DNA from: a bacterium
Lineage (GTDB): Bacteria; Patescibacteriota; Microgenomatia; Levybacterales; UBA12049
DNA length: 64,000 bases
Assembly: GCA_021780675.1 (NCBI GenBank)
Contig: JAJXYH010000013.1
Location: forward strand, 593 to 64,592
Direction: 5' to 3'
Shown here one piece after another: positions 14,709 through 54,016 of the stretch. Below the pieces are notes generated by a model. That model was not told the origin of the DNA. It searched no databases and saw nothing but the letters and a program-made list of their open reading frames with translations. Numbering within the stretch: the first letter of the stretch is position 1; every line of letters begins with the position of its first letter. A program made the position numbers and the translations under genes.

Positions 14709-14742
14709 AAAATTAAAATATCAGTTGATTGTCTAGAGTGCT

Positions 14743-15565: not shown

Positions 15566-17301
15566 CTCTGAAGCATCGACAATAGTGCTTTTTGGGGAAT
15601 TTCAACTTTGGATACATTAATCATACGCACCTTACCTTTTTTCTGAGCTTCTAATAATTTATCTTTTCTTGTTCTATCTCCACCCGACATTTTTGCTAAA
15701 ACGTCTTTTCTGTAAGGAGGAATTTCAGTTCTTGCGACTATTTTTGTACCAACTGCCGATTGTATGATTTGTCTAAATTGTTGTCGTGGTAAAAATTCCT
15801 TAAGCTTCTCTGTCTTTTCTCTTCCCACATGATCAATTTCATCTTTATAAACAAGCTCCGACAGGACATCAATCACGTTTTCATTTATCAAAATATCCAT
15901 TTTAACTAAATTTGCTTCTTTAAAACCGGTAATTTCATAATCAAGACTTGCAAAACCCTGAGAGACACTTTTAAGCTCCGACGACAAACCCCTGATAAAC
16001 ATCGAGTAAGGCATTTCGTATTCTAGTATTGCGTTATCTTTATGGTAAGTAATATTTAAAAGAATTCCTTTTTTGTTTTGAGCAACTGTCATCACACCTC
16101 CAACGTAAGATGAGGGAACAAAGATAGTTAAATTCATAACCGGTTCGTAGATTTTTTCTCCCTCTTCTTTATATAAAACCCGTGGCATCGTTAATAATGG
16201 GTCTACAGCACCTTCCTGCGTAAGTCTTTCTTTAACAATTTCCGCGTGTAGTAACCCCAAAAAACCAACTCGAAAACCACTTCCTAAAAAAGCCGAATGT
16301 TCATTTGCAACAGTTAATGATCCATCATTTAAAGAAAGCTTGTTTAACGCCTCCCTAAGATGAATATAATCATTTGTACTTTTAGGATAAATTCCAAAAA
16401 ATACCATCGGCTTAGGTAAAGAATATCCGGGAAGCGGCATAACCAATTCTTTGGTGTTTTGAAAGGTAATAGTATCCCCAACTCTTGTTTGCCTGATATC
16501 CTTGATTCCTGTCACAACATATCCTATTTGTCCCGCTACTATTTCTTTCTGAGAAATAAGGAAGGGAGAAAAAAATCCAACCTCAGAAACATCAATCTTT
16601 GTCCCGGTTTGAATAAATTCCAATTTATCCTGTTTTTTTATTAGGCCATCAAATAACTTTATAAAAATAATGACTCCTCTATGCTCATCAAATGCGGCAT
16701 CAAAAACCAATCCTCTAAGAGGTTTGTTTAAATCTGCGCTGGGCGGGGGTACTTTTTTAATAACTTCTTCCAAAAGCTCTCTGGTACCTTCGCCTGTTTT
16801 TGCAGATATATATAATATCTCTTCCTCCCTAAAACCGAATATCTCTATCATACTTTTAGCAACAATTTCTTTATTTGAAGAGGGAAGATCGATTTTATTT
16901 ATTACAGGAATTACCTTAAGACTCTCTTTTTTAGCAGTGTTGTAATGAGCGACTGTCTGCGCTTGGATCCCTTTTGTTGCGTCAACTAAAAGTATTGCCC
17001 CTTCACAAGCAGCTAAAGTCCTTGAAACTTCGTAAGAAAAATCCATATGCCCGGGGGTATCAATTAGATTAAGACTATATTCTTCTTCGTTAAATTTATA
17101 TTGCATTCTTACCGGAGCAAGTTTAATAGTAATACCCCTTTCTCTTGAAATAGGATTTTGATCTAAAAATTGTTCTTTTAATTTATCTTTAGATATCGTA
17201 CTTGTTATTTCTAAAAATCTATCGGCAAGCGTGGACTTTCCGTGATCAATATGTGCAATAATGGCAAAATTTCTAATATTTTTGGGTTTCATACGAAGCA
17301 A
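15562..17301 (-). CDS. lepA: Translation elongation factor 4 (LepA GTPase).
   Basis: G1 motif AHIDHGKST, DTPGH, and the LepA-specific C-terminal domain. Confidence 0.9.
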   Translation of the reverse strand: MLRMKPKNIRNFAIIAHIDHGKSTLADRFLEITSTISKDKLKEQFLDQNPISRERGITIKLAPVRMQYKFNEEEYSLNLIDTPGHMDFSYEVSRTLAACEGAILLVDATKGIQAQTVAHYNTAKKESLKVIPVINKIDLPSSNKEIVAKSMIEIFGFREEEILYISAKTGEGTRELLEEVIKKVPPPSADLNKPLRGLVFDAAFDEHRGVIIFIKLFDGLIKKQDKLEFIQTGTKIDVSEVGFFSPFLISQKEIVAGQIGYVVTGIKDIRQTRVGDTITFQNTKELVMPLPGYSLPKPMVFFGIYPKSTNDYIHLREALNKLSLNDGSLTVANEHSAFLGSGFRVGFLGLLHAEIVKERLTQEGAVDPLLTMPRVLYKEEGEKIYEPVMNLTIFVPSSYVGGVMTVAQNKKGILLNITYHKDNAILEYEMPYSMFIRGLSSELKSVSQGFASLDYEITGFKEANLVKMDILINENVIDVLSELVYKDEIDHVGREKTEKLKEFLPRQQFRQIIQSAVGTKIVARTEIPPYRKDVLAKMSGGDRTRKDKLLEAQKKGKVRMINVSKVEIPQKALLSMLQS

Positions 17302-38870: not shown

Positions 38871-39425
38871 ATGAAAAATGATGTGGCAACTTTTGCCGGC
38901 GGCTGTTTTTGGTGCACAGAAGCAATATTTAAAAGATTAAAGGGTGTTTACTCTGTAACACCTGGTTATAGTGGAGGGGATATAGAAAATCCTTCTTATG
39001 AAAAGGTTTCCTCGGGAGAAACCGGACATGCAGAAAGTATTCAAATAAAATTTAATCTTGAAGAAATGCCTTATGCAGTACTATTAGAAATTTTCTGGCA
39101 TACCCATGACCCCACTACTATAAACATGCAGGGTAACGATATTGGCACACAATATAGATCGGCAATTTTTTATCATTCTGAAGAACAAAAAAATCAGGCC
39201 CTTGAATCCAAGAAAAAAATTGAAAAAGATAAAATCTATAAAGATCCAATCGTAACTCAAATATTACCTTTTAAGAATTTTTATGAAGCTGAAAATTACC
39301 ATAAAGATTATTATGACCGAAATAAAGATTATCCGTATTGCAATTTTGTAATAAGTCCCAAAATAAAAAAACTTATGGATAAATACAGTAAATTCGTTAA
39401 GAATGAATATTTAGAAAATAACTAG
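38871..39425 (+). CDS. msrA: Peptide-methionine (S)-S-oxide reductase.
   Basis: Active-site GCFWC motif at the N-terminus. Confidence 0.9.
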   Translation: MKNDVATFAGGCFWCTEAIFKRLKGVYSVTPGYSGGDIENPSYEKVSSGETGHAESIQIKFNLEEMPYAVLLEIFWHTHDPTTINMQGNDIGTQYRSAIFYHSEEQKNQALESKKKIEKDKIYKDPIVTQILPFKNFYEAENYHKDYYDRNKDYPYCNFVISPKIKKLMDKYSKFVKNEYLENN

Positions 39426-40649
39426 TTATTTTCTAACAAAAAGAAGAGCGTTTGGTATGTTTCTGCCTGGTCCTGCCTTATAACCTCCGCCATACCAAAG
39501 TGCAGTTGATCCACCTTGATCTAAATTCATTGCATTATCCATTCCTAGCGCCTTTAATACATTTGCGCTTTCTTGCATCGTTGCGTTAAAAACAATTCCT
39601 ATATATGCAGTATTTCCCTTGTTCGCAACAAATGTTCTTGCTGCTTTTGGAGCATATTTTGCATCCCCTCCGCCGGAATAAACAACATTTCCATTATTAA
39701 CTAAAAGTGGGTAATTTGATAAAACCGAATCAACGCTTGTATCTCTTCCCCAAGATAAGGCTTGAGAAACAAATCTGGCATTATTACCATAGAAAATTAC
39801 TGCGGGATTGGTGCTATATACATTATTGGATGAATTAAAATATGTTTTATTTTTATTCATCACTAAAAGATCGAAAGAATTTGTTTTACCCACACAACTA
39901 GGATATTCTGCAGGGCAAAAATAAGAACCGTTAATTCCGGCGTATGCACCGCTTCTGGCAACATAATCTGCAAGCGGCATTACAGGACAATTATTGCCGC
40001 AATCCCCATCCGATGCGGTATCAACAATTACCTTTGTGGAATTTAGGTCGGCAGCAATAATATATACCGTAAAATCTGCTCCGTTTGCAGATACGGACTG
40101 AACAGAAAATCCGTTAGTGGGGGGGGTATTACTCTTAGTAACGTTTTGTGCCGGCGCACTTGCTGCAGCTTGAGCTTTCGCCAGCTCATCTTGTTTTTTC
40201 TTAACGCTATCCGCCAAAGAATTTAATTGAGCCGAGGCTGAAGGATAGTTAATTTCAGATATGTAATTTATTCCCTGCGCCAATTGCTTATCTAAATCGG
40301 ATGTGTCTTGTTTTTGTACTTTTAGGTCTAATATATTTTGATAAATATCAACAACGTCCTTAGATAAACTTTGTATATTGGTAATATTTTTCTTAAGTTG
40401 TTGATTTATTTTATATTGGTCTTGATTTTGTAAATCATTTAATTTACCTGCTGTAACTTTTAATTTATTCGTCAAATCGCTATTAGATCTTTTATAACTA
40501 TTTACATTATTTAACAAATTTACATTAGTAATAACCAATACAACAATTAGTACAGAAATTACTAGAATATCCGGAAGCTGCGTCTTAAATATGTGTTTAA
40601 AATCTAATTGTTTAAAATGTTTGATATATTTAAGTATGTTTAAGACCAC
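39426..40649 (-). CDS. Phosphodiester glycosidase-family (NAGPA/DUF2233) exoprotein with an N-terminal TM anchor and coiled-coil.
   Basis: C-terminal NLDQGGSTAL (family DGGGSS motif). Conserved Cys-rich central region. Confidence 0.55.
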   Translation of the reverse strand: MVLNILKYIKHFKQLDFKHIFKTQLPDILVISVLIVVLVITNVNLLNNVNSYKRSNSDLTNKLKVTAGKLNDLQNQDQYKINQQLKKNITNIQSLSKDVVDIYQNILDLKVQKQDTSDLDKQLAQGINYISEINYPSASAQLNSLADSVKKKQDELAKAQAAASAPAQNVTKSNTPPTNGFSVQSVSANGADFTVYIIAADLNSTKVIVDTASDGDCGNNCPVMPLADYVARSGAYAGINGSYFCPAEYPSCVGKTNSFDLLVMNKNKTYFNSSNNVYSTNPAVIFYGNNARFVSQALSWGRDTSVDSVLSNYPLLVNNGNVVYSGGGDAKYAPKAARTFVANKGNTAYIGIVFNATMQESANVLKALGMDNAMNLDQGGSTALWYGGGYKAGPGRNIPNALLFVRK

Positions 40650-43656: not shown

Positions 43657-44469
43657 ATGTTTAAAAAAATTCTACAACCGCTGATTATTTTTATTACCTT
43701 AATACTAACAGGGGCACTCTTTTTTTCAAATGCAAACGCACAAACTACTTCAAATAATTTTTCTATTACAACCGAAGGTGCCGCAAGCTTAGGTGTTGCC
43801 CAAATTGTTGAACTTGCCCAGAAGGATGTAAAAGATGGAAGTATTGTTTCTTCTTCAAAAGACGGGGTTATTCTTTCAAATACACCTTATGACCCACAAG
43901 TTTTAGGAATTGTTGCAAGAGATGCGGCAATCATATTCTCAACAAGCGATGTCAACAATGGTGTTCCGGTAATTCCCGTTGGGAGAGTTTATGTATTGGT
44001 TTCAACTAAAGACGGTATTATTAAAAAAGGTGATGAAATAACCACCTCAACGATACCGGGTGTTGGTGTAAAAGCCACAAAAGACGGATATGTGCTGGGT
44101 CCTGCTTTAGAAGATTATACTAATACAAAACAGGTTGGAAAAATTGCATTAAATCTTGAACTACATTATTTTAATGCCAAACCCACTTTAGCAGGATCGC
44201 TTTCCGATATTTTTAAATTTGCACTTTTACCTACAAAAGAAGGACCTGCTCCAATTTTTAAATATATAGTTGCAGCGCTGGTTGTTTTAGCATCAGTAAT
44301 CTTTGGTTTCTTAAGCTTTGGAAGAACGGCTGCAAAAGGAGTAGAAGCGTTAGGAAGAAATCCCGCAGCTGGAAGAATTATTCAACTTGGCATTATATTC
44401 AACGTCATTATTGTTATTGCAATAATTATAGCAGGACTTAGTGTTGCCTTTTTAATTCTTAGACTTTGA
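43657..44469 (+). CDS. Secreted hypothetical protein with a C-terminal two-helix membrane hairpin.
   Basis: Signal peptide, about 200-aa extracytoplasmic domain, then helix-GRNPAAGR-helix. Confidence 0.35.
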   Translation: MFKKILQPLIIFITLILTGALFFSNANAQTTSNNFSITTEGAASLGVAQIVELAQKDVKDGSIVSSSKDGVILSNTPYDPQVLGIVARDAAIIFSTSDVNNGVPVIPVGRVYVLVSTKDGIIKKGDEITTSTIPGVGVKATKDGYVLGPALEDYTNTKQVGKIALNLELHYFNAKPTLAGSLSDIFKFALLPTKEGPAPIFKYIVAALVVLASVIFGFLSFGRTAAKGVEALGRNPAAGRIIQLGIIFNVIIVIAIIIAGLSVAFLILRL

Positions 44470-45570
44470 TGCAATAAAATTTTCTATTTCCTCCTTAAAT
44501 CTCTCCTTGGAGAATTTTTGCGACTGCTTATTACAATCCATAGGATTAATCTTTAAACTTTCAAATTTTTTAATAGCGGCGGTTAAACTTTCTGTTGTTA
44601 AATCATTAAATAATATTCCGGTTTTATTATCTATTACTGTTTCTTTAACTCCGCCTGATCGATATGCTATTACCGCTGTCCCCACAGACATTGCCTCAAC
44701 CGGCATAATTCCAAAATCTTCATCCTCTGCCGGGAATATAAAAACCTTTGCTTGCTCATATAACTTCCATTTTTCTTCATCGGTTACTTCACCTAAAAAT
44801 TCTACAGTCGGACCAGCTAATCTTTTTAATTCGCTTCCGTATCCTGAGAATTCTCTTCCAAAAACTTTTAGGGGGAAACCCATTTTTGTACATACCAAGA
44901 CCGCCAGATCTACATGTTTGGGTCTTGCAAGCCTTCCACCGGCCAATAGATAATTACCCTTTTTCTGATTTAAATAACCCTCCTTTACTTGCACAGGAGG
45001 ATAAATTATTTTTGGGTCTCGTCTATAAAATTTTTTAATTCTTTTGGAAACTTCTTCTGAATTAGCAATAAAATAGTCGGGAATTTGAGCTGATTTAAAA
45101 TCTAACAAACGGATAAAATGAATGGGTACTAAACCAACTAGATATAACAACTTTCTCCACCAAACACTTTTCCATGGGGCGGCTGTTGAGTAACCATACA
45201 AATACCTGGGGGGCGTATGACAATAACAAAATAATTTAGCATCCTTTTTCTTTTTAACAAAATTTGGACTTGTATAGGTACCTGTTGCAGATGTAATAAT
45301 CACATCATAATCTGAAAGATCCAAAGACTTAAAAACAAATGGCGCAATTAAACGAAAATAACTAAGTAATTTATTTTTAAAAGGGGTGTTTTGAAACCAA
45401 GTAGTCCTAATATCCATTTTATTAAACCTTTCTCTATGCGAACCTAAAAAGGACGGTGAATAAAATGCTGTATATATTGGAGCTTCAGGATAAATTTCCG
45501 ACAGAGTTTCCAAAACTTTTTCTGCTCCGCCGTACTCTTTTATATAATCATGGACTAATGCAACTTTCAT
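44452..45570 (-). CDS. GT4 (GT-B, retaining) glycosyltransferase.
   Basis: N-terminal MKVALVHDY...GGAE, C-terminal E-x7-E region (FPAEDEDFGIMPVEAM). Confidence 0.75.
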   Translation of the reverse strand: MKVALVHDYIKEYGGAEKVLETLSEIYPEAPIYTAFYSPSFLGSHRERFNKMDIRTTWFQNTPFKNKLLSYFRLIAPFVFKSLDLSDYDVIITSATGTYTSPNFVKKKKDAKLFCYCHTPPRYLYGYSTAAPWKSVWWRKLLYLVGLVPIHFIRLLDFKSAQIPDYFIANSEEVSKRIKKFYRRDPKIIYPPVQVKEGYLNQKKGNYLLAGGRLARPKHVDLAVLVCTKMGFPLKVFGREFSGYGSELKRLAGPTVEFLGEVTDEEKWKLYEQAKVFIFPAEDEDFGIMPVEAMSVGTAVIAYRSGGVKETVIDNKTGILFNDLTTESLTAAIKKFESLKINPMDCNKQSQKFSKERFKEEIENFIASKSKN

Positions 45571-46493
45571 AATAAGCTCATCTGATTATCTTCTTTTTTT
45601 TCCTCTTTTTGTTTTTTTATAATAGGCTTTGAATCAAAAACGGACAGTCTTTTTAATAAACTGCTAAACCCAAGTGATTCAAATTGTTTTTTTAAACCAT
45701 TAGCATCAATATTTGAAATTAAACAATCGTTTTCATTTAATTCAACCGGTGCATCGGTAATAATTGTTGCAAGATTTTTTGACATTACAGCTTGCTCTGC
45801 GTCGTTTGCCAGTTTTTCTTGAAGTTGTGGAAGTAACTCCGATATATGTTTATATAAATTTTCTAGACTTTCATATTTGTTTATAAGCTGCGATGCTGTT
45901 TTTGACCCAATGCCTGTTACTCCCGGATAATTATCTGATGAATCACCAGCCAATGCTTTATAGTCTATGATTTGTTTAGGCTTAAGTCCATACTTTTCTT
46001 TTATTTTTGCTTCATCAAAAAGTATCATATTTGTAATACCAACAACGGGTGCTAAAACTAACACATGAGAGTTAACAAGTTGTAATAAATCTCTGTCTCC
46101 CGAAACAATAATTACTTCAAAATTCTTTTCAACACCCTTTTTAGATAATGTGCCAATTAAATCGTCTGCCTCATATCCCTCAACACCAAAATGAACTATC
46201 TGTGCTTCGTCTAATGATTTATGAATAATATCTATTTGAGGTACTAAATCTTCCGACATTTTTGGTCTTTTTGCCTGATACCCAACATAAATTTGCTTCC
46301 TAAAGGTCGGTGCCTTTTTATCAAAGCATACTATTAAATTTTCAGGTTTTAAGCTTTCAATAATTTTAAAAAGCATGGTAAAAAAACCATAAACTGCATT
46401 TGTTGGTTGTCCTTCCTTGTTATTTAACGGGGGCAGTGCGTGATAAGCTCTGTGGATAATTGCATTACCGTCTATAAGAACGAGTTTCTTCAT
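45567..46493 (-). CDS. Stand-alone 5'-3' exonuclease (Pol I N-terminal-domain / FEN homolog).
   Basis: LIDGNAIIHRAYHALPPL...GQPTNAVYGF is collinear with the Pol I 5'-nuclease domain. 308 aa, no polymerase domain. Confidence 0.8.
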   Translation of the reverse strand: MKKLVLIDGNAIIHRAYHALPPLNNKEGQPTNAVYGFFTMLFKIIESLKPENLIVCFDKKAPTFRKQIYVGYQAKRPKMSEDLVPQIDIIHKSLDEAQIVHFGVEGYEADDLIGTLSKKGVEKNFEVIIVSGDRDLLQLVNSHVLVLAPVVGITNMILFDEAKIKEKYGLKPKQIIDYKALAGDSSDNYPGVTGIGSKTASQLINKYESLENLYKHISELLPQLQEKLANDAEQAVMSKNLATIITDAPVELNENDCLISNIDANGLKKQFESLGFSSLLKRLSVFDSKPIIKKQKEEKKEDNQMSLL

Positions 46494-46508
46494 GAAGCTT
46501 ATTATAAC

Positions 46509-47147
46509 TTATTTAAATGAAGATTGTGATAAAAGTTTTCTGTAAACGTAGGCTTCCGCCACCATTGCAAGTGGCACCGTAATAATCAGTCCAATCAAAA
46601 GACACAAAAATCCTAATATATTAATAAGTCCCAATAAAAGCCCTAATAAAAATAAATTCCATTTAACTCCTTTTGTCATTTCCCAGCTTGCCTTTATAGC
46701 ATCAACTGCATCCATTTTTTTATCAACAATCAAGTATTCCGTAAATTGAAGTTTAATTGAAAAGATAATTCCGGGAATTATTAAAAGAATAAAACCAACT
46801 GCAATTATTAATCCTCTAATAAGAGATGCTAACATAAAATTAAATAATTTTGTAATATAATAAAGGTCTTTATATTCAGGTTTTTTCCTATCAACAAACT
46901 TAAGTATAATATTGACAAACCCCATTGATATAATAGAAGTTACGACCCATGAAACAAGAGCTAACATAAAACTTATTAAGGATTGTTTGTCTGCATTTAG
47001 TGTGTGTTGTATAGATGAAGAAATAACTGTAATAACTCCCCAAATTACAAAAAGTCCGATAAAGAATACGATGTTTTCTTTTGCAATTTTAAAACCAAAA
47101 TTTATTGCTTCTTTTTTTGAAAAACTTCGTTTTTGTGAAGTACTCAT
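46509..47147 (-). CDS. Polytopic membrane protein (DUF975-like).
   Basis: 5 TM helices. No catalytic motif. Confidence 0.35.
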   Translation of the reverse strand: MSTSQKRSFSKKEAINFGFKIAKENIVFFIGLFVIWGVITVISSSIQHTLNADKQSLISFMLALVSWVVTSIISMGFVNIILKFVDRKKPEYKDLYYITKLFNFMLASLIRGLIIAVGFILLIIPGIIFSIKLQFTEYLIVDKKMDAVDAIKASWEMTKGVKWNLFLLGLLLGLINILGFLCLLIGLIITVPLAMVAEAYVYRKLLSQSSFK

Positions 47148-47163
47148 ACATTTATAGTATAAC

Positions 47164-49062
47164 TTACACTTTTACGGTTGCAAGAACTGCTTTTTTGGGG
47201 CCGACAATCCTTTCAAACTCTTCAGATTCAATCGTTTCATTTTTTAATAATTCTTCTGCTAAAACATCCAATTTTGTTTTTAATTTTTTAAGTACTCCGA
47301 TTGCGTTTTCGTATGCATCGTCAGTAATTTTTTTAACTTGTACATCAATCTTAGAGGCCATCTCCGAAGAAACATTAGTTTGCTCGTAAGGATTTCTTCT
47401 GTCTCCATCCAAATTAATAGGCCCAAGTTCACTCATTCCATATTCTACAACCATCGTTCTTGCAACTTCGGTAGCTTTTGCAATATCATCTGACGCTCCT
47501 GTTGTAACTTCTTTAAAAATTAAGCTTTCTGCAGCCCGTCCTCCAAGCATTACCGAAATCTCCTCCAAAAGATGTGTTTTTGTTTCATGTACTCTATCCA
47601 TTGGTTCCATCATTGTATGCCCCAAAGACATTCCCCTTGATACGATTGATATTCTATGCACCGGATCCATATGCGGCATAAACCAAGAAACCAAAGCATG
47701 TCCTGCTTCATGATATGCAGTCATTTTTCTGTCTTCATCCGACTGTAATCTCTTTTTTTCCGGCCCTAGTTTTACTTTAGTTGCTGCTTCTTCCAAGTCC
47801 TTCATATCAATTGATTTCTTGGAAAGTCTTGCTGCTAAAATTGCCGATTCATTAAGCATGTTTTCTAAATCTGCGCCTGAAAAACCTACTGTTCTTTTGG
47901 CAATTTTTTCCCATGAAACGTTACTTGCAAATGGTTTTCCTTTTGCATGGATTGCTAAAATTGCTTCACGGCCTTTAACATCAGGAAATTCTAAAACAAC
48001 CCTTCGATCAAACCTACCGGGCCTTATTAATGCCGGATCTAAAACATCAGGCCTATTAGTTGCGGCAATTACTACTAATTGTTCTGTTGGCGCAAACCCA
48101 TCCATCTCGACCAAAATTTGATTTAATGTTTGCTCTCTTTCATCATGGCCACCCATAAATCCTGTACCGCGTTGTCTTCCGATTGCGTCAACCTCGTCAA
48201 TAAAAATTATTGCAGGCTGTGCTTTTTTGGCGTTGCTAAATAAATCTCTTACCCTTGATGCACCGACTCCAACTAACATTTCCATAAATTCCGATCCCGC
48301 CATTGAAAAAAATGCCACACCTGCCTCACCGGCTGTTGCTCTTGCTAAAAGTGTTTTTCCCGTTCCGCTTGGACCAACCATTAATACTCCTTTTGGAGTC
48401 CTTGCACCCATTGCCTTGTATTTACCCGGGTTTTTCAAAAAATCCACAACTTCTGTTAATTCCTGTTTTGCTTCGTCAACCCCCGCAACATCTGCAAATG
48501 TAGTTCTTGGTGTATCTTTACTAAAAAGCTTTGCAGAAGATTTTCCGAAAGAAAATATGTTATCCTGCGCCCCTCTTGCCTGCCTAAAAATAAACCAGAA
48601 AAACGCAATCATTAAAACAATTGGCAAAACAGATCCTAATATATTTAGCCAGTTATTAAGTGTAGTATCATCTTTTATTACAACACTTGTTTTAGAAAGT
48701 GAAACTCCCGCATTTCTAAATAATTGATAAACATCAGCATTTGTCTCTTTGTAGCTTTCCAGAGTTTCCGTCTTTCCTACCGCATCAATTTTATTTGTGT
48801 ATACATTTATTGTGCTTATTTTCCCACCTTTAACTTCATTTATAAGTGTTGAAAGTGGCACGGTTTTGACATTTTGAAGATTTGTTCCACTTTGAGATCC
48901 TGCGCCAAAAAACAAGAATCCTGTAAAAATTATGAGGAATGCATAAAGAACAATATTTTTCCAGGAAAACTTCATTCTTACTCTTACCTGTTTTAATTTC
49001 TTTGGTTTTTTTATCGTTGCCATAACCTGGAGATTATAACATAAATCGAAGCTAACTAACAA
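47164..49062 (-). CDS. ftsH: ATP-dependent zinc metalloprotease FtsH.
   Basis: Two N-terminal TM helices. AAA Walker A GPSGTGKT, SRH. HEAGH zinc motif. Confidence 0.9.
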   Translation of the reverse strand: MLVSFDLCYNLQVMATIKKPKKLKQVRVRMKFSWKNIVLYAFLIIFTGFLFFGAGSQSGTNLQNVKTVPLSTLINEVKGGKISTINVYTNKIDAVGKTETLESYKETNADVYQLFRNAGVSLSKTSVVIKDDTTLNNWLNILGSVLPIVLMIAFFWFIFRQARGAQDNIFSFGKSSAKLFSKDTPRTTFADVAGVDEAKQELTEVVDFLKNPGKYKAMGARTPKGVLMVGPSGTGKTLLARATAGEAGVAFFSMAGSEFMEMLVGVGASRVRDLFSNAKKAQPAIIFIDEVDAIGRQRGTGFMGGHDEREQTLNQILVEMDGFAPTEQLVVIAATNRPDVLDPALIRPGRFDRRVVLEFPDVKGREAILAIHAKGKPFASNVSWEKIAKRTVGFSGADLENMLNESAILAARLSKKSIDMKDLEEAATKVKLGPEKKRLQSDEDRKMTAYHEAGHALVSWFMPHMDPVHRISIVSRGMSLGHTMMEPMDRVHETKTHLLEEISVMLGGRAAESLIFKEVTTGASDDIAKATEVARTMVVEYGMSELGPINLDGDRRNPYEQTNVSSEMASKIDVQVKKITDDAYENAIGVLKKLKTKLDVLAEELLKNETIESEEFERIVGPKKAVLATVKV

Positions 49063-49073
49063 GGATCCTTAAC

Positions 49074-50048
49074 TTACATCAAGCCTAATTGTTCCTTAGC
49101 TTTGTTTAGTGTTTTCAGTGATTTATTTATGGAATAATCCTTACCTTCATCTAATACTCTTCTTAAATATTTTTCATCACTTCTAATTTGAGTATATTTT
49201 CCCTGTATTTCCTTAAGTTTATCTACAACAAGTTCTGCCAGTAATCCTTTAAACTCTCCATAAGATTTTCCATCCAGCTCATTATATGTAATATCTAATG
49301 ATTGATCTTTAAAAGCGGAGTATATAGCTAATAGATTTGCAATTGCCTCTCCGCCGTTGTCTTTAGAAATTGAGGAATTAGAATCTGTCACAGCTTTTTT
49401 AATCTTTTCTTTAATTTTTTCGACCGTATCCAAAAGATTTATTGTACCCAACGGGTCATTATCGGATTTACTCATTTTTGATAAGGGATTTTGAAGACTC
49501 ATTATTCTTGCCGTATCTTTATGAATAACTGAGTTAGGTAATTTAAAAGTCTGTCCGAATTTTTTATTAAACTTTTCTGCCAAATCTCTGGTAAGTTCTA
49601 TGTGCTGTTTTTGATCTTCGCCAACCGGAACTTCATCTGTTTGATAGAGTAAAATGTCTGATGCCATTAAAACAGGGTAGTCAAAAAGACCAACATTTAC
49701 CTCATGTTTTTCCGACTTTTCCTTAAATTGCGTCATCCTCTCAAGCTGTCCAAACGGGGTAATTGTATTTAAAATCCAGGCAAGTTCCGTATGGTTGGGG
49801 TTTTCCGACTGAATAAAAATTTTTGATTTTCTTGGATCAATTCCGCATGCTAAATAAAGAGCCGCAACCTCTAACACTTTTTCTTTTATTGCTGAAGGAT
49901 TCTGTGGAACAGTTATTGCATGTAAATCTACGACACAAAAAATGCTTTCTGTAAAATCTTGCCCCTTAACCCACTGCGAAATTGCGCCTATATAGTTTCC
50001 AATATGTAAATCTCCGCTTGGCTGAATTCCCGAAAAAACTGTTTTCAT
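49074..50048 (-). CDS. trpS: Tryptophanyl-tRNA synthetase.
   Basis: FSGIQPSG...HIGNY (HIGH-type) and KMSKS (KMSKSDND). Confidence 0.9.
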   Translation of the reverse strand: MKTVFSGIQPSGDLHIGNYIGAISQWVKGQDFTESIFCVVDLHAITVPQNPSAIKEKVLEVAALYLACGIDPRKSKIFIQSENPNHTELAWILNTITPFGQLERMTQFKEKSEKHEVNVGLFDYPVLMASDILLYQTDEVPVGEDQKQHIELTRDLAEKFNKKFGQTFKLPNSVIHKDTARIMSLQNPLSKMSKSDNDPLGTINLLDTVEKIKEKIKKAVTDSNSSISKDNGGEAIANLLAIYSAFKDQSLDITYNELDGKSYGEFKGLLAELVVDKLKEIQGKYTQIRSDEKYLRRVLDEGKDYSINKSLKTLNKAKEQLGLM

Positions 50049-50077
50049 ATCAATATCTTAACACAAAATTCTATTCA

Positions 50078-50353
50078 TTATACATTTTTAAAATTCCCCT
50101 TTTGGATTTCCCGTGCACCTCTTGTTACGGTAGCAACACCAACTTGAATAGTTTTTGAAACTTCTTGTTGCGGAATTCCACGTTTTAACATTTTAACTAT
50201 TAAAAGCCTGTTGGATATTTCTTCCAGCTCTTTTGGTGTTAAAATTCCATGCAAGAAAGTATTAATTTCATCTTTTGTTTTTAGTCGTGAAATGAAATTA
50301 ACAAGATCTTCCAAGTTCTTTTCTTTATTATTACTATTTAATAATATTTTCAT
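50078..50353 (-). CDS. TrpR-related YerC/YecD-family DNA-binding protein.
   Basis: 91 aa. The LTPKELEEISNRL...G.SQQEVSKTIQVGVATVTRGAREI helix-turn-helix matches the YerC/YecD (Trp-repressor-like) family. Confidence 0.65.
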   Translation of the reverse strand: MKILLNSNNKEKNLEDLVNFISRLKTKDEINTFLHGILTPKELEEISNRLLIVKMLKRGIPQQEVSKTIQVGVATVTRGAREIQKGNFKNV

Positions 50354-50398
50354 AAAAAATCTTCCTAAACAATAAAAATTTTATATTTATTATTATTT

Positions 50399-50436
50399 GT
50401 ACATACTAGTATACTAATATTAATAATAAATGTCAA
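50399..50436 (-). promoter_or_regulatory. Promoter (TTGACA, 17 nt, TATACT) whose -10 and +1 are covered by a perfect palindrome containing the ACTAGT core. Candidate TrpR-type operator.
   Basis: Minus-strand reading gives TTGACAtttattattaatattagTATACTAGTATGTAC. ATACTAGTAT (50403-50412) and TAGTATACTA are perfect palindromes. The E. coli TrpR operator core is ACTAGT. Confidence 0.4.
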
Positions 50437-50463
50437 TTCAATATGTAATGGATGTATAAAATG

Positions 50464-52974
<2,511 letters not shown>

Positions 52975-52978
<4 letters not shown>

Positions 52979-53757
52979 AAGAGAGAAATTTTCTCAATTT
53001 TACCACTCTTTGTCAATTTATCAACATGAAACCCTATCGCATTCAAACCCCCTGTTGTATAAAAATTATATCTTGCTTTATTGGAATTAGAAAGAATTTT
53101 ATTGTTATTTAATATTCTTTCAACTTGTCTAACAACAGCTCCTGCTGAATCTAAAATTAAAACATTTGGCAACTTTTTTTTAATTTTTGAATAAATTAAC
53201 GGAAAATGGGAACATCCTAAAGCCAAAACATCAACCTTTTTTTCAATAAATGGCTTTAATTCCTTTTCTAATATTTTATCTATTGATACAAAATCCGGAT
53301 TTTCTATCTTCTCAACTAAATTATCTGAACCGATACTTATAACAGTATTTTCTTTTGCAAATTCATTGATTAATTTTTTTTGATATTTACTTTTTGCCGT
53401 AACCTTTGTTGAAAAAATGCCAATCTTTCCACTTTTTGAATTATTTATTGCTGTTTTTACCACAGGAACTATTCCTACAACCGGCAAATTAGGGTAATAT
53501 TTCCTTAATTTTTCTATTGACGTAACAGTTATTGTATTACAAGCTATTAAAAGTAATTTAATATTTTTGCTAAGTAGATAATCAACCATTTTTTTAGTTA
53601 ATTTATAGATTTCTTCCGCTGATTTTTGTCCATAAGGACAATTTTTAGAATCAGCAATATAAACAATTGATTCTTTAGGAAGTTTTTTTATTAAAACCGA
53701 GGCAATTGATAGGCCACCAATGCCAGAATCTATAATTCCAATTGGCTTATTATTCAT
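52975..53757 (-). CDS. murI: Glutamate racemase.
   Basis: GIIDSGIGGLS N-terminus. Catalytic Cys motifs (NCPYG... and GCSHFP). Confidence 0.85.
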
Positions 53758-54016
53758 AAGAAGAATTATAACAGAGGAAAAATGTGTTGCGGGGCTAGGA
53801 GTTGCGCCTAGTCTATAAGATTATGAGCCTCATGTGCACTGTACACTACCCCGCACGTGAAACTATTATATAACAAATTTGCTTCAATTTGAAGTTATTG
53901 ATAAAATACATTTATCGTTTCCTACCAAAATCCGAAGGATTTTGAAGAGGAACAACCGATAAAAAGTTGAAATCCGAATTTTACGAGGATGAAAACGCAA
54001 AATCGTGTTGCGACGT

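Follow-up and report, generated by a model that had tools for sequence, protein, structure and literature searches.

The best explanation as a whole for a minus-strand locus in a Patescibacteria genome, to which we give a probability of roughly 0.6, is a tryptophan-responsive autoregulation of the TrpR type that reaches the neighbouring tryptophanyl-tRNA synthetase gene trpS and leaves the following gene, ftsH, mainly separate. The locus lies in a stretch of DNA of 64,000 nucleotides (nt), the whole of which is called the window here (assembly GCA_021780675.1, contig JAJXYH010000013.1, positions 593 to 64,592; Microgenomatia, Levybacterales, UBA12049). According to the list of open reading frames (ORFs) and to the sequence, the end of tgt at 50464 is followed by a 110-nt spacer, a trpR-like gene encoding 91 amino acids (aa), trpS and ftsH (Table 1). 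An earlier note on this DNA had placed a YerC/YecD-family regulator, acting on a TrpR-operator-like palindrome, at the head of a yerC-trpS-ftsH operon, and had called the synthetase gene Gram-positive-like; it is partly supported. Upon re-reading of the sequence, the promoter (TTGACA, 17 nt, TATACT), the palindromes and the ORFs were all found where it had put them, whereas the organism belongs to the Patescibacteria/Microgenomates.

The predicted operator lies on the trpR promoter, which is the best sigma-70-like match within 46000..52000 (11/12 positions). The segment TATTAGTATACTAGTATG spans the -10 box of this promoter, continues past it and holds two overlapping palindromes of 10 base pairs (bp), namely ATACTAGTAT (50403..50412, inside the operator region and overlapping the -10 region) and TAGTATACTA (50407..50416), and the -10 hexamer itself arises where the two operator units meet. 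Palindromy was rejected as evidence and says nothing here, because 10-bp palindromes are no commoner than chance in this AT-rich window (88 perfect ones observed against about 112 expected under a first-order Markov model). The earlier note had raised the possibility that the motif recurs at random in such a genome, but ATACTAGTAT occurs once in the 64-kb window against 0.04 expected, and the site found with a 16-bp operator matrix, built from orthologous promoters and reaching at most 24.6 bits, is unique in the window: it scores 22.5 bits, the runner-up in 64 kb reaches 11.1, and 18.8 was the maximum over 50 shuffles. Further copies upstream of trp-related or transporter genes, which the same note had envisaged, were not found within the 64-kb window, where the runner-up stays under the shuffle maxima.

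Three candidates for additional operators in the window were tried and rejected. The matrix gave no support to a 2-mismatch match at 16016 or to a CTAG....CTAG match at 14733, and TAACTAGTTA at 39419..39428 has a low matrix score and sits at the junction of convergent genes. The latter is the sole other CTAG-centred 10-bp palindrome of the window; the genes at 38871..39425 (plus strand) and 39426..40649 (minus strand) converge there, and the palindrome probably reflects their overlapping stop codons.

The 91-aa protein has many homologues, nearly all from Patescibacteria (mainly Levybacteria, Roizmanbacteria and other Microgenomates), and 80 genome loci, 43 metagenome loci (relatives at no more than 64% identity) and five closer relatives (L081, L125-L128) were compared. 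Absence of the palindrome from orthologous promoters would have spoken against the earlier note; a site of at least 15 bits, at most 170 nt upstream of trpR, is present at 119 of the 124 evaluable Microgenomates loci, including 42/45 of those not used for matrix building, and 793 kb of related-locus DNA hold just one more. When promoters were anchored on the -35 box, 73/80 genome loci aligned without gaps (TTGAC is invariant in the 74 aligned promoters with this box, which had been chosen for carrying it), and positions 17-32 past this box read TACTAGTA-TACTAGTA, with about 1-1.5 bits per position and, in many loci, a third 8-bp unit at positions 9-16. As in the window, the -10 hexamer of the relatives, TATACT or TATAAT, is made by the junction of two units; positions 17-22 and 29-32 are conserved as well, though no promoter requires them. 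The trpR promoters, 7.2 kb in all, contain the unit TACTAGTA 94 times, against 7 occurrences in about 557 kb elsewhere, and five of these seven are trpR promoters with a misassigned start codon. Among close relatives (70-96% protein identity), the intergenic spacer has diverged except for the -35 box and the block TATATCAGTATACTAGTATG, which is a classic phylogenetic footprint.

The symmetric trp operator consensus of Escherichia coli, also quoted in the earlier note, is GTACTAGTTAACTAGTAC, and the full site in many Microgenomates loci (e.g., L022, L030, L049), GTACTAGTATACTAGTAC, differs from it solely at the two central bases, which bears out the claim that a TrpR-type operator sits on this promoter. 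The site GTACTAGTATACTAGTAC fits GNACT-N8-AGTNC, with CTAG cores 8 bp apart, the half-site layout described for E. coli TrpR, and the repetition of 8-bp units recalls the tandem dimer binding of the complex in PDB entry 1TRR. This clade consensus, to which the 18-mer of the window, ATATTAGTATACTAGTAT (50403..50420), conforms at 15/18 positions, also agrees with the gamma-proteobacterial TrpR motif TGTAcTnGTnnACnAgTACA (PMC9413887). On the contrary, the conserved site of the clade, TACTAGTATACTAGTA, is unlike cacTTTAnnnnnnTAAAgtg, the motif of HisR, whose regulon comprises his genes and histidine transporters (PMC9413887).

The earlier note was right to assign the first gene to the Trp repressor family (PF01371, 70.1 bits against a cutoff of 27, residues 13-87). 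The AlphaFold2 model of the monomer (predicted local distance difference test score of 90.6) has five helices in the all-helical TrpR fold with its helix-turn-helix, and the best 41 Foldseek matches in the PDB are all TrpR or TrpR-like chains (template-modelling scores of 0.63-0.71), with 1TRR at the top, E. coli TrpR and 3KOR among the top matches, and TrpR and HisR-type entries interleaved. With fold matches interleaved and whole-sequence scores close, such similarity was dropped as a means to choose between TrpR and HisR; because it is uninformative, the decision rests on diagnostic residues, operator and gene context. The tryptophan pocket of E. coli TrpR, which we take to consist of L41, L43, T44, P45, R54, I57, V58, T81, R84, G85 and S88, is matched at 9/11 positions: L38, T39, P40, R49, I52, V53, T75, R78 and G79 are identical and (nearly) invariant in the clade, the exceptions being L41, replaced by G36, and S88, replaced by E82. 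As for the residues by which TrpR contacts DNA, i.e., R69, I79, A80, T81, T83 and R84 (PMC9413887), A74, T75, T77 and R78 of the window protein are identical, V73 is conservative for Ile, and position 69 is Gln or His instead of Arg, making four identical and one conservative of six, versus 3/6 in HisR. The clade-invariant motifs ILTPKE...R..IV and GVATVTRG align with LMLTPDE...R..IV and GIATITRG of E. coli; HisR proteins carry CT(V/I)NE and ATISR(V) at the equivalent places, and TrpR positions 79 and 83 are Thr and Ser in HisR, Val and Thr in the window protein. HisR replaces the Trp-contacting residues, binds its own motif upstream of his genes and uses histidine as co-repressor (PMC9413887). 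Since YerC of Bacillus subtilis is this very histidine repressor, with motif cacTTTAnnnnnnTAAAgtg (PMC9413887), the description of YerC as poorly characterised is outdated; nor can membership in YerC/YecD be retained, as the corresponding model (TIGR02531) yields 37.5 bits, below its cutoff of 42.2 and below the TrpR model, and pocket and helix residues are TrpR-like. Judged from its sequence, the 91-aa protein is a TrpR-family regulator of a Patescibacteria-specific branch, outside YerC/YecD. It very probably binds the operator of Table 1, and tryptophan would be its co-repressor. As an annotation correction, proteins of this clade are not to be filed with YerC/HisR.

The gene order of relatives links this regulator with trpS. 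In 60 of the 81 loci with enough sequence, trpS lies downstream of trpR on the same strand (gap of 33-3809 nt, median 1.8 kb), whereas tgt is directly upstream of trpR in only 28/92, and the trpR-trpS link is thus more conserved than the surrounding synteny. The genes in between are nearly always on the same strand and include trpB (TIGR00263, 568 bits versus a cutoff of 392, 20 loci), trpE at close to its cutoff, a trpD-like gene with a weaker match, genes for an amino-acid racemase and for a DUF3182 protein and, directly before trpS in seven loci, those for a pair of 540-aa and 138-aa proteins that matches neither Pfam nor NCBIfam. A trp biosynthesis gene follows trpR in 39/104 loci; the 64-kb window has none, and trpS alone represents the tryptophan genes there. 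Its closest relatives have the same minimal order, murI-murD-tgt-trpR-trpS-ftsH, into which one small gene is inserted in some of them. The tryptophan content of one sequence per in-between family except trpE was also checked: TrpB (397 aa), the TrpD-like protein (473 aa), the racemase (246 aa), the DUF3182 protein (369 aa) and unassigned proteins of 540, 365, 283, 195 and 138 aa are all devoid of tryptophan, which fits production during tryptophan starvation. In a relative with 76% identity (L128:541-1505), the gene after trpR starts like ftsH, behind an ftsH-type promoter box, and trpS seems to be missing between the two.

Most relatives also carry a putative attenuator in the spacer after trpR, which begins with a short ORF containing one, two or three Trp codons (e.g., MNKSNNNNWWDDLLW, MKIINNNNWWTTFLW, MYSFKNSKLVNGSWVKPLM, MFKFDFINLNWSSLQLEACLSA). 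At 94/123 loci, a short ORF with a Trp codon starts no more than about 130 nt past the trpR stop or overlaps it. Its ATG often overlaps the end of trpR, as AATGTnTAA (ATG at -8) or ATATGA (ATG at -4), for instance in L018, L025, L001 and L048, which suggests that the leader peptide is translationally coupled to the trpR stop. The Trp codon stands 4-7 nt ahead of the first arm of a hairpin 1:2, whose second arm can pair (2:3) with the first arm of a strong terminator 3:4 followed by a T-run (for example AACCTCC-GAAA-GGAGGTT-TTTTTT), according to the same logic as E. coli trpL; the element has no match in Rfam. Masking the part covered by the ribosome turns the minimum-energy fold into the antiterminator in several cases but not in all, and because this flip is inconsistent, support for the attenuator comes from its architecture and conservation and not from folding energy alone. 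An attenuator at this place implies that, in the relatives, transcripts begun at the trpR promoter are intended to extend into the downstream genes, and that these genes are regulated by tryptophan. The attenuator has been lost from the window and from L081, L125 and L128, the relatives nearest to it; the end of trpR in the window keeps AAAATGTATAATGA, which yields just a 4-codon remnant, MYNE*.

From these elements the following mechanism is proposed for the window. The 91-aa protein would act as a dimeric helix-turn-helix repressor whose tryptophan-loaded form occupies the tandem CTAG units TATTAGTA-TACTAGTA (50419..50404), and since these units coincide in part with the -10 box and transcription start of the strong trpR promoter, binding would block RNA polymerase. 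As trpR and trpS are 29 nt apart without a terminator, transcripts from this promoter would run into trpS, so that scarcity of tryptophan would raise both repressor mRNA and tryptophanyl-tRNA synthetase mRNA. The weak internal -10-like element before trpS probably gives the basal level needed for an essential gene; the tryptophan-responsive trpR-trpS transcript would be added on top of it, and ftsH would be made mainly from its own promoter. The earlier note had described control of trpS by a mode other than a T-box, and indeed a scan of 44000..54000 against Rfam (E-value of at most 1) gave no T-box and no other RNA family except a tRNA at 53787, nor was any T-box above the gathering score detected in 18 related loci.

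Several observations weigh against a TrpR-type regulator whose action extends to trpS, some bearing on the regulator and others on its reach. As to the regulator, the protein stays below the equivalog cutoff of the NCBIfam model for TrpR (TIGR01321, 50.2 against 67.25 bits), which is nevertheless its best NCBIfam model, the whole-sequence profile of the clade is marginally nearer HisR-type PDB structures than E. coli TrpR (46.9 versus 39.6 bits), and the window operator is degenerate, one of its two CTAG cores being TTAG, a degeneracy common to Levybacteria-type relatives, with TATCAGTA as first unit. A YerC/HisR-type sensor of histidine or of another ligand would account for the two scores, and a block that overlaps the -10 hexamer, which has to be conserved anyway, might be a promoter element or the site of another factor. 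We consider both ideas hardly credible, given that conservation extends outside the hexamer to positions 17-22 and 29-32, that the other promoters of the window are without CTAG units, that the motif is that of TrpR and not cacTTTAnnnnnnTAAAgtg (PMC9413887), that the neighbours in related loci are trp genes and trpS but never his genes, that the leader peptides carry W or WW codons, and that the pocket is TrpR-like.

The reach of control is the weaker part of the argument. Upstream of trpS stands a conserved extended -10-like box of its own, a candidate internal leaderless promoter, and in many relatives a clear TATAAT precedes the ATG of trpS by 6-9 nt, at times with a hairpin ahead of it; moreover trpS, like most genes here, has no Shine-Dalgarno (SD) sequence for internal initiation on a bicistronic RNA. 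Among the 59 genes of the window, 34 (about 10 expected) show a TAnnnT hexamer whose end lies 6-9 nt ahead of the ATG, often also with TTGACA about 36 nt upstream, and only six an SD-like sequence, so leaderless mRNAs, with promoters for individual genes, appear to be the main mode of expression in this genome; where these dominate, the trpR promoter may contribute little or nothing to the making of trpS. The operator could then control trpR only, as the remnant of a larger trp operon that has lost trpB, the attenuator and others, or with its real targets elsewhere in the genome, an explanation that would also suit the lack of attenuator and in-between genes in the window clade. We find it possible but rather unlikely: read-through into trpS is hard to avoid across a 29-nt spacer in which a terminator search found none, trpS of several relatives has an SD and either touches the operon gene before it or overlaps with it, a repressor of itself only has no obvious selective value, yet protein and operator are kept in relatives with the minimal layout, and no other operator exists in the 64 kb, only one other in 793 kb of related DNA. 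It seems reasonably likely, then, that the operator promoter materially controls trpS output, with the read-through transcript providing a material share of TrpS synthesis; the close spacing and the linkage make the earlier claim about trpS plausible, and the conserved TGtTAAGAT box qualifies it. The single trpR-trpS-ftsH unit of the same note, in which the FtsH protease would also respond to tryptophan, has in its favour a common strand, spacers of 29 and about 50 nt, no recognisable terminator, and trpS-ftsH adjacency in 31 of the 80 loci with trpS downstream. This adjacency is limited to part of the clade and looks inherited with murD-tgt, the window and three relatives share a conserved TGtTATAAT, a better box than that of trpS, 9 nt ahead of the ftsH start codon, and in L128 the ftsH-like gene with its ftsH-type box follows trpR with no room for trpS. 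Because trpS and ftsH have their own boxes and leaderless promoters prevail, the three-gene operon is doubtful, and we hold it to be very unlikely; ftsH is probably transcribed separately, from its own promoter, and operator control of it in any form is improbable.

Tryptophan-responsive autoregulation reaching trpS can be compared with several known systems. TrpR operators of E. coli lie at trpEDCBA, at aroH and on the autoregulated promoter of trpR, which is monocistronic, and trpS is to our knowledge outside the TrpR regulon, a literature search having found no contrary report. The window protein has in common with E. coli TrpR the Pfam family and the fold, a near-identical recognition helix and the Arg54/Arg84/Thr44-type pocket positions, and in both cases the operator, with CTAG cores 8 bp apart, overlaps -10/+1 of the repressor's own promoter. 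Differences reside in the low identity (about 34% over 74 residues), in the shorter proteins of the clade (82-91 aa, without the C-terminal helix F region) and in position 69, Arg there and Gln/His here, as well as position 88, Ser there and Glu here. HisR (YerC/YecD) shares PF01371, a similar length and a gapless alignment with 3KOR, 3FRW and 3G1C, and is often autoregulated via a 20-bp palindrome (PMC9413887), but it differs in motif, his regulon, recognition helix and effector pocket, whereas the window protein sits with trp genes. The trpRBA operon of Chlamydia trachomatis offers a closer parallel in layout: trpR heads the operon that it represses from P_trpR, with trpB downstream, and the intergenic region holds a second promoter and an attenuation-type control, with YtgR acting in trans (PMC7755916). 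Similarly, the window has a trpR promoter and a box before trpS, its relatives have trpR, an attenuator and trpB, and both hosts are reduced and scavenge nutrients. The unit here ends in trpS, however, which stands alone in the window, and the attenuator of the relatives is a leader peptide in cis, often coupled to the trpR stop, unlike YtgR. The T-box trpS genes of Firmicutes follow the same logic, the synthetase going up when tryptophan or charged tRNA-Trp is scarce, whereas control here would act at transcription initiation via a DNA-binding repressor.

A regulator-operator pair with autoregulation is textbook TrpR biology, and a trpR gene heading its operon is known from Chlamydia. What appears to be new is the lineage, trpS as terminal (here the only) gene and, in the relatives, the attenuator coupled to the repressor stop; our literature search yielded neither a paper that describes a Trp repressor from Patescibacteria nor a report of a TrpR-controlled trpS. 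With very small genomes, few regulators that can be recognised and no genetics in culture, bacteria of the Candidate Phyla Radiation have disclosed almost nothing of how they control their genes. Here, a regulator-operator pair conserved across a superphylum-level group can be read straight from sequence, and an operator nearly identical to that of E. coli over a very long evolutionary distance provides a ready testable system, in which a protein comes with its 16-18 bp site and presumed ligand. On the strength of the comparisons above, we give even odds to a Microgenomates-wide, self-contained tryptophan-starvation module, of which the window would represent the minimal trpR-trpS form with the synthetase as direct, possibly sole, output of the repressor. 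At the head of this module there may be a TrpR-type repressor in an operon of its own that is often leaderless, followed by an attenuator with Trp codons that is often coupled in translation to the trpR stop, a variable set of proteins free of tryptophan (TrpB, TrpE, TrpD-like, amino-acid racemase, DUF3182 and the pair of 540-aa and 138-aa proteins) and, usually last, trpS. If it were true, it would be a mode of synthetase control not previously described, in organisms thought to be nearly without transcriptional regulation. Provided that trpS is truly controlled, a third coupling of a synthetase to amino-acid supply would come beside T-box RNAs and leader-peptide attenuation, and tryptophan scavenging would stand out as a key limitation of symbiont-like cells, as in Chlamydia.

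Table 1. Features of the trpR-trpS-ftsH locus in the window, with examples from elsewhere in the window and from related loci (L numbers)
Feature	Coordinates	Strand	Basis or remark
-35 hexamer TTGACA of trpR promoter	50431..50436	minus	sequence inspection
-10 hexamer TATACT, 17-nt spacer after -35	50408..50413	minus	11/12 consensus matches
Predicted TrpR-type operator, two tandem 8-bp units TATTAGTA + TACTAGTA	50404..50419	minus	matrix 22.5 bits
Predicted trpR 5' leader, ~47 nt	50354..50401	minus	start site inferred from -10 position
SD-like AGGAAG ahead of trpR	50366..50361	minus	sequence
trpR-like gene, 91 aa, Trp_repressor family, Patescibacteria-specific clade	50078..50353	minus	PF01371 70 bits
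trpR-trpS spacer, 29 nt, without terminator or SD	50049..50077	minus	sequence
Extended -10-like TGtTAAGAT, 6 nt before trpS ATG	50063..50055	minus	conserved in L127, L081, L125
trpS, tryptophan--tRNA ligase, 324 aa	49074..50048	minus	TIGR00233 371 bits, cutoff 176.75
Extended -10-like TGtTATAAT, 9 nt before ftsH ATG	49033..49041	minus	conserved in L081, L125, L126
ftsH	47164..49023	minus	TIGR01241 740 bits
Leaderless-type promoters, examples	198, 9506, 28999(-), 39426(-), 43657, 45567(-), 46509(-), 52975(-)
Putative attenuators of relatives	L001:3757-3865, L018:4184-4310, L048:4199-4330, L065:1695-1830, L015:954-1100
Genes between trpR and trpS in relatives, examples	L002:3684-5306, L002:5312-5728, L012:4356-5453, L004:4351-5202, L016:4306-5499

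A few minor features complete the picture. The start of ftsH in Table 1 is the conserved ATG at 49023, about 50 nt past trpS; the ORF list has a TTG at 49062, which is unlikely to be the true start, the ATG probably being the one used. A second trpR-like copy, in opposite orientation and a few kb off, is present in two related loci (L030:2801-3007(-) and L042:6910-7116(-)), with no operator of at least 15 bits beside either copy. In most relatives, the ATG of trpR lies 3-11 nt past the -10 box, i.e., trpR is leaderless (promoters of L001-L080). In the leader of the window (50354..50403), this start position survives as a vestigial 3-codon ORF, ATG TAC AAA TAA, and the trpR start used in the window clade is 51 nt beyond the vestigial ATG, behind the SD-like AGGAAG, a displacement by which a leaderless gene was turned into a leadered one.

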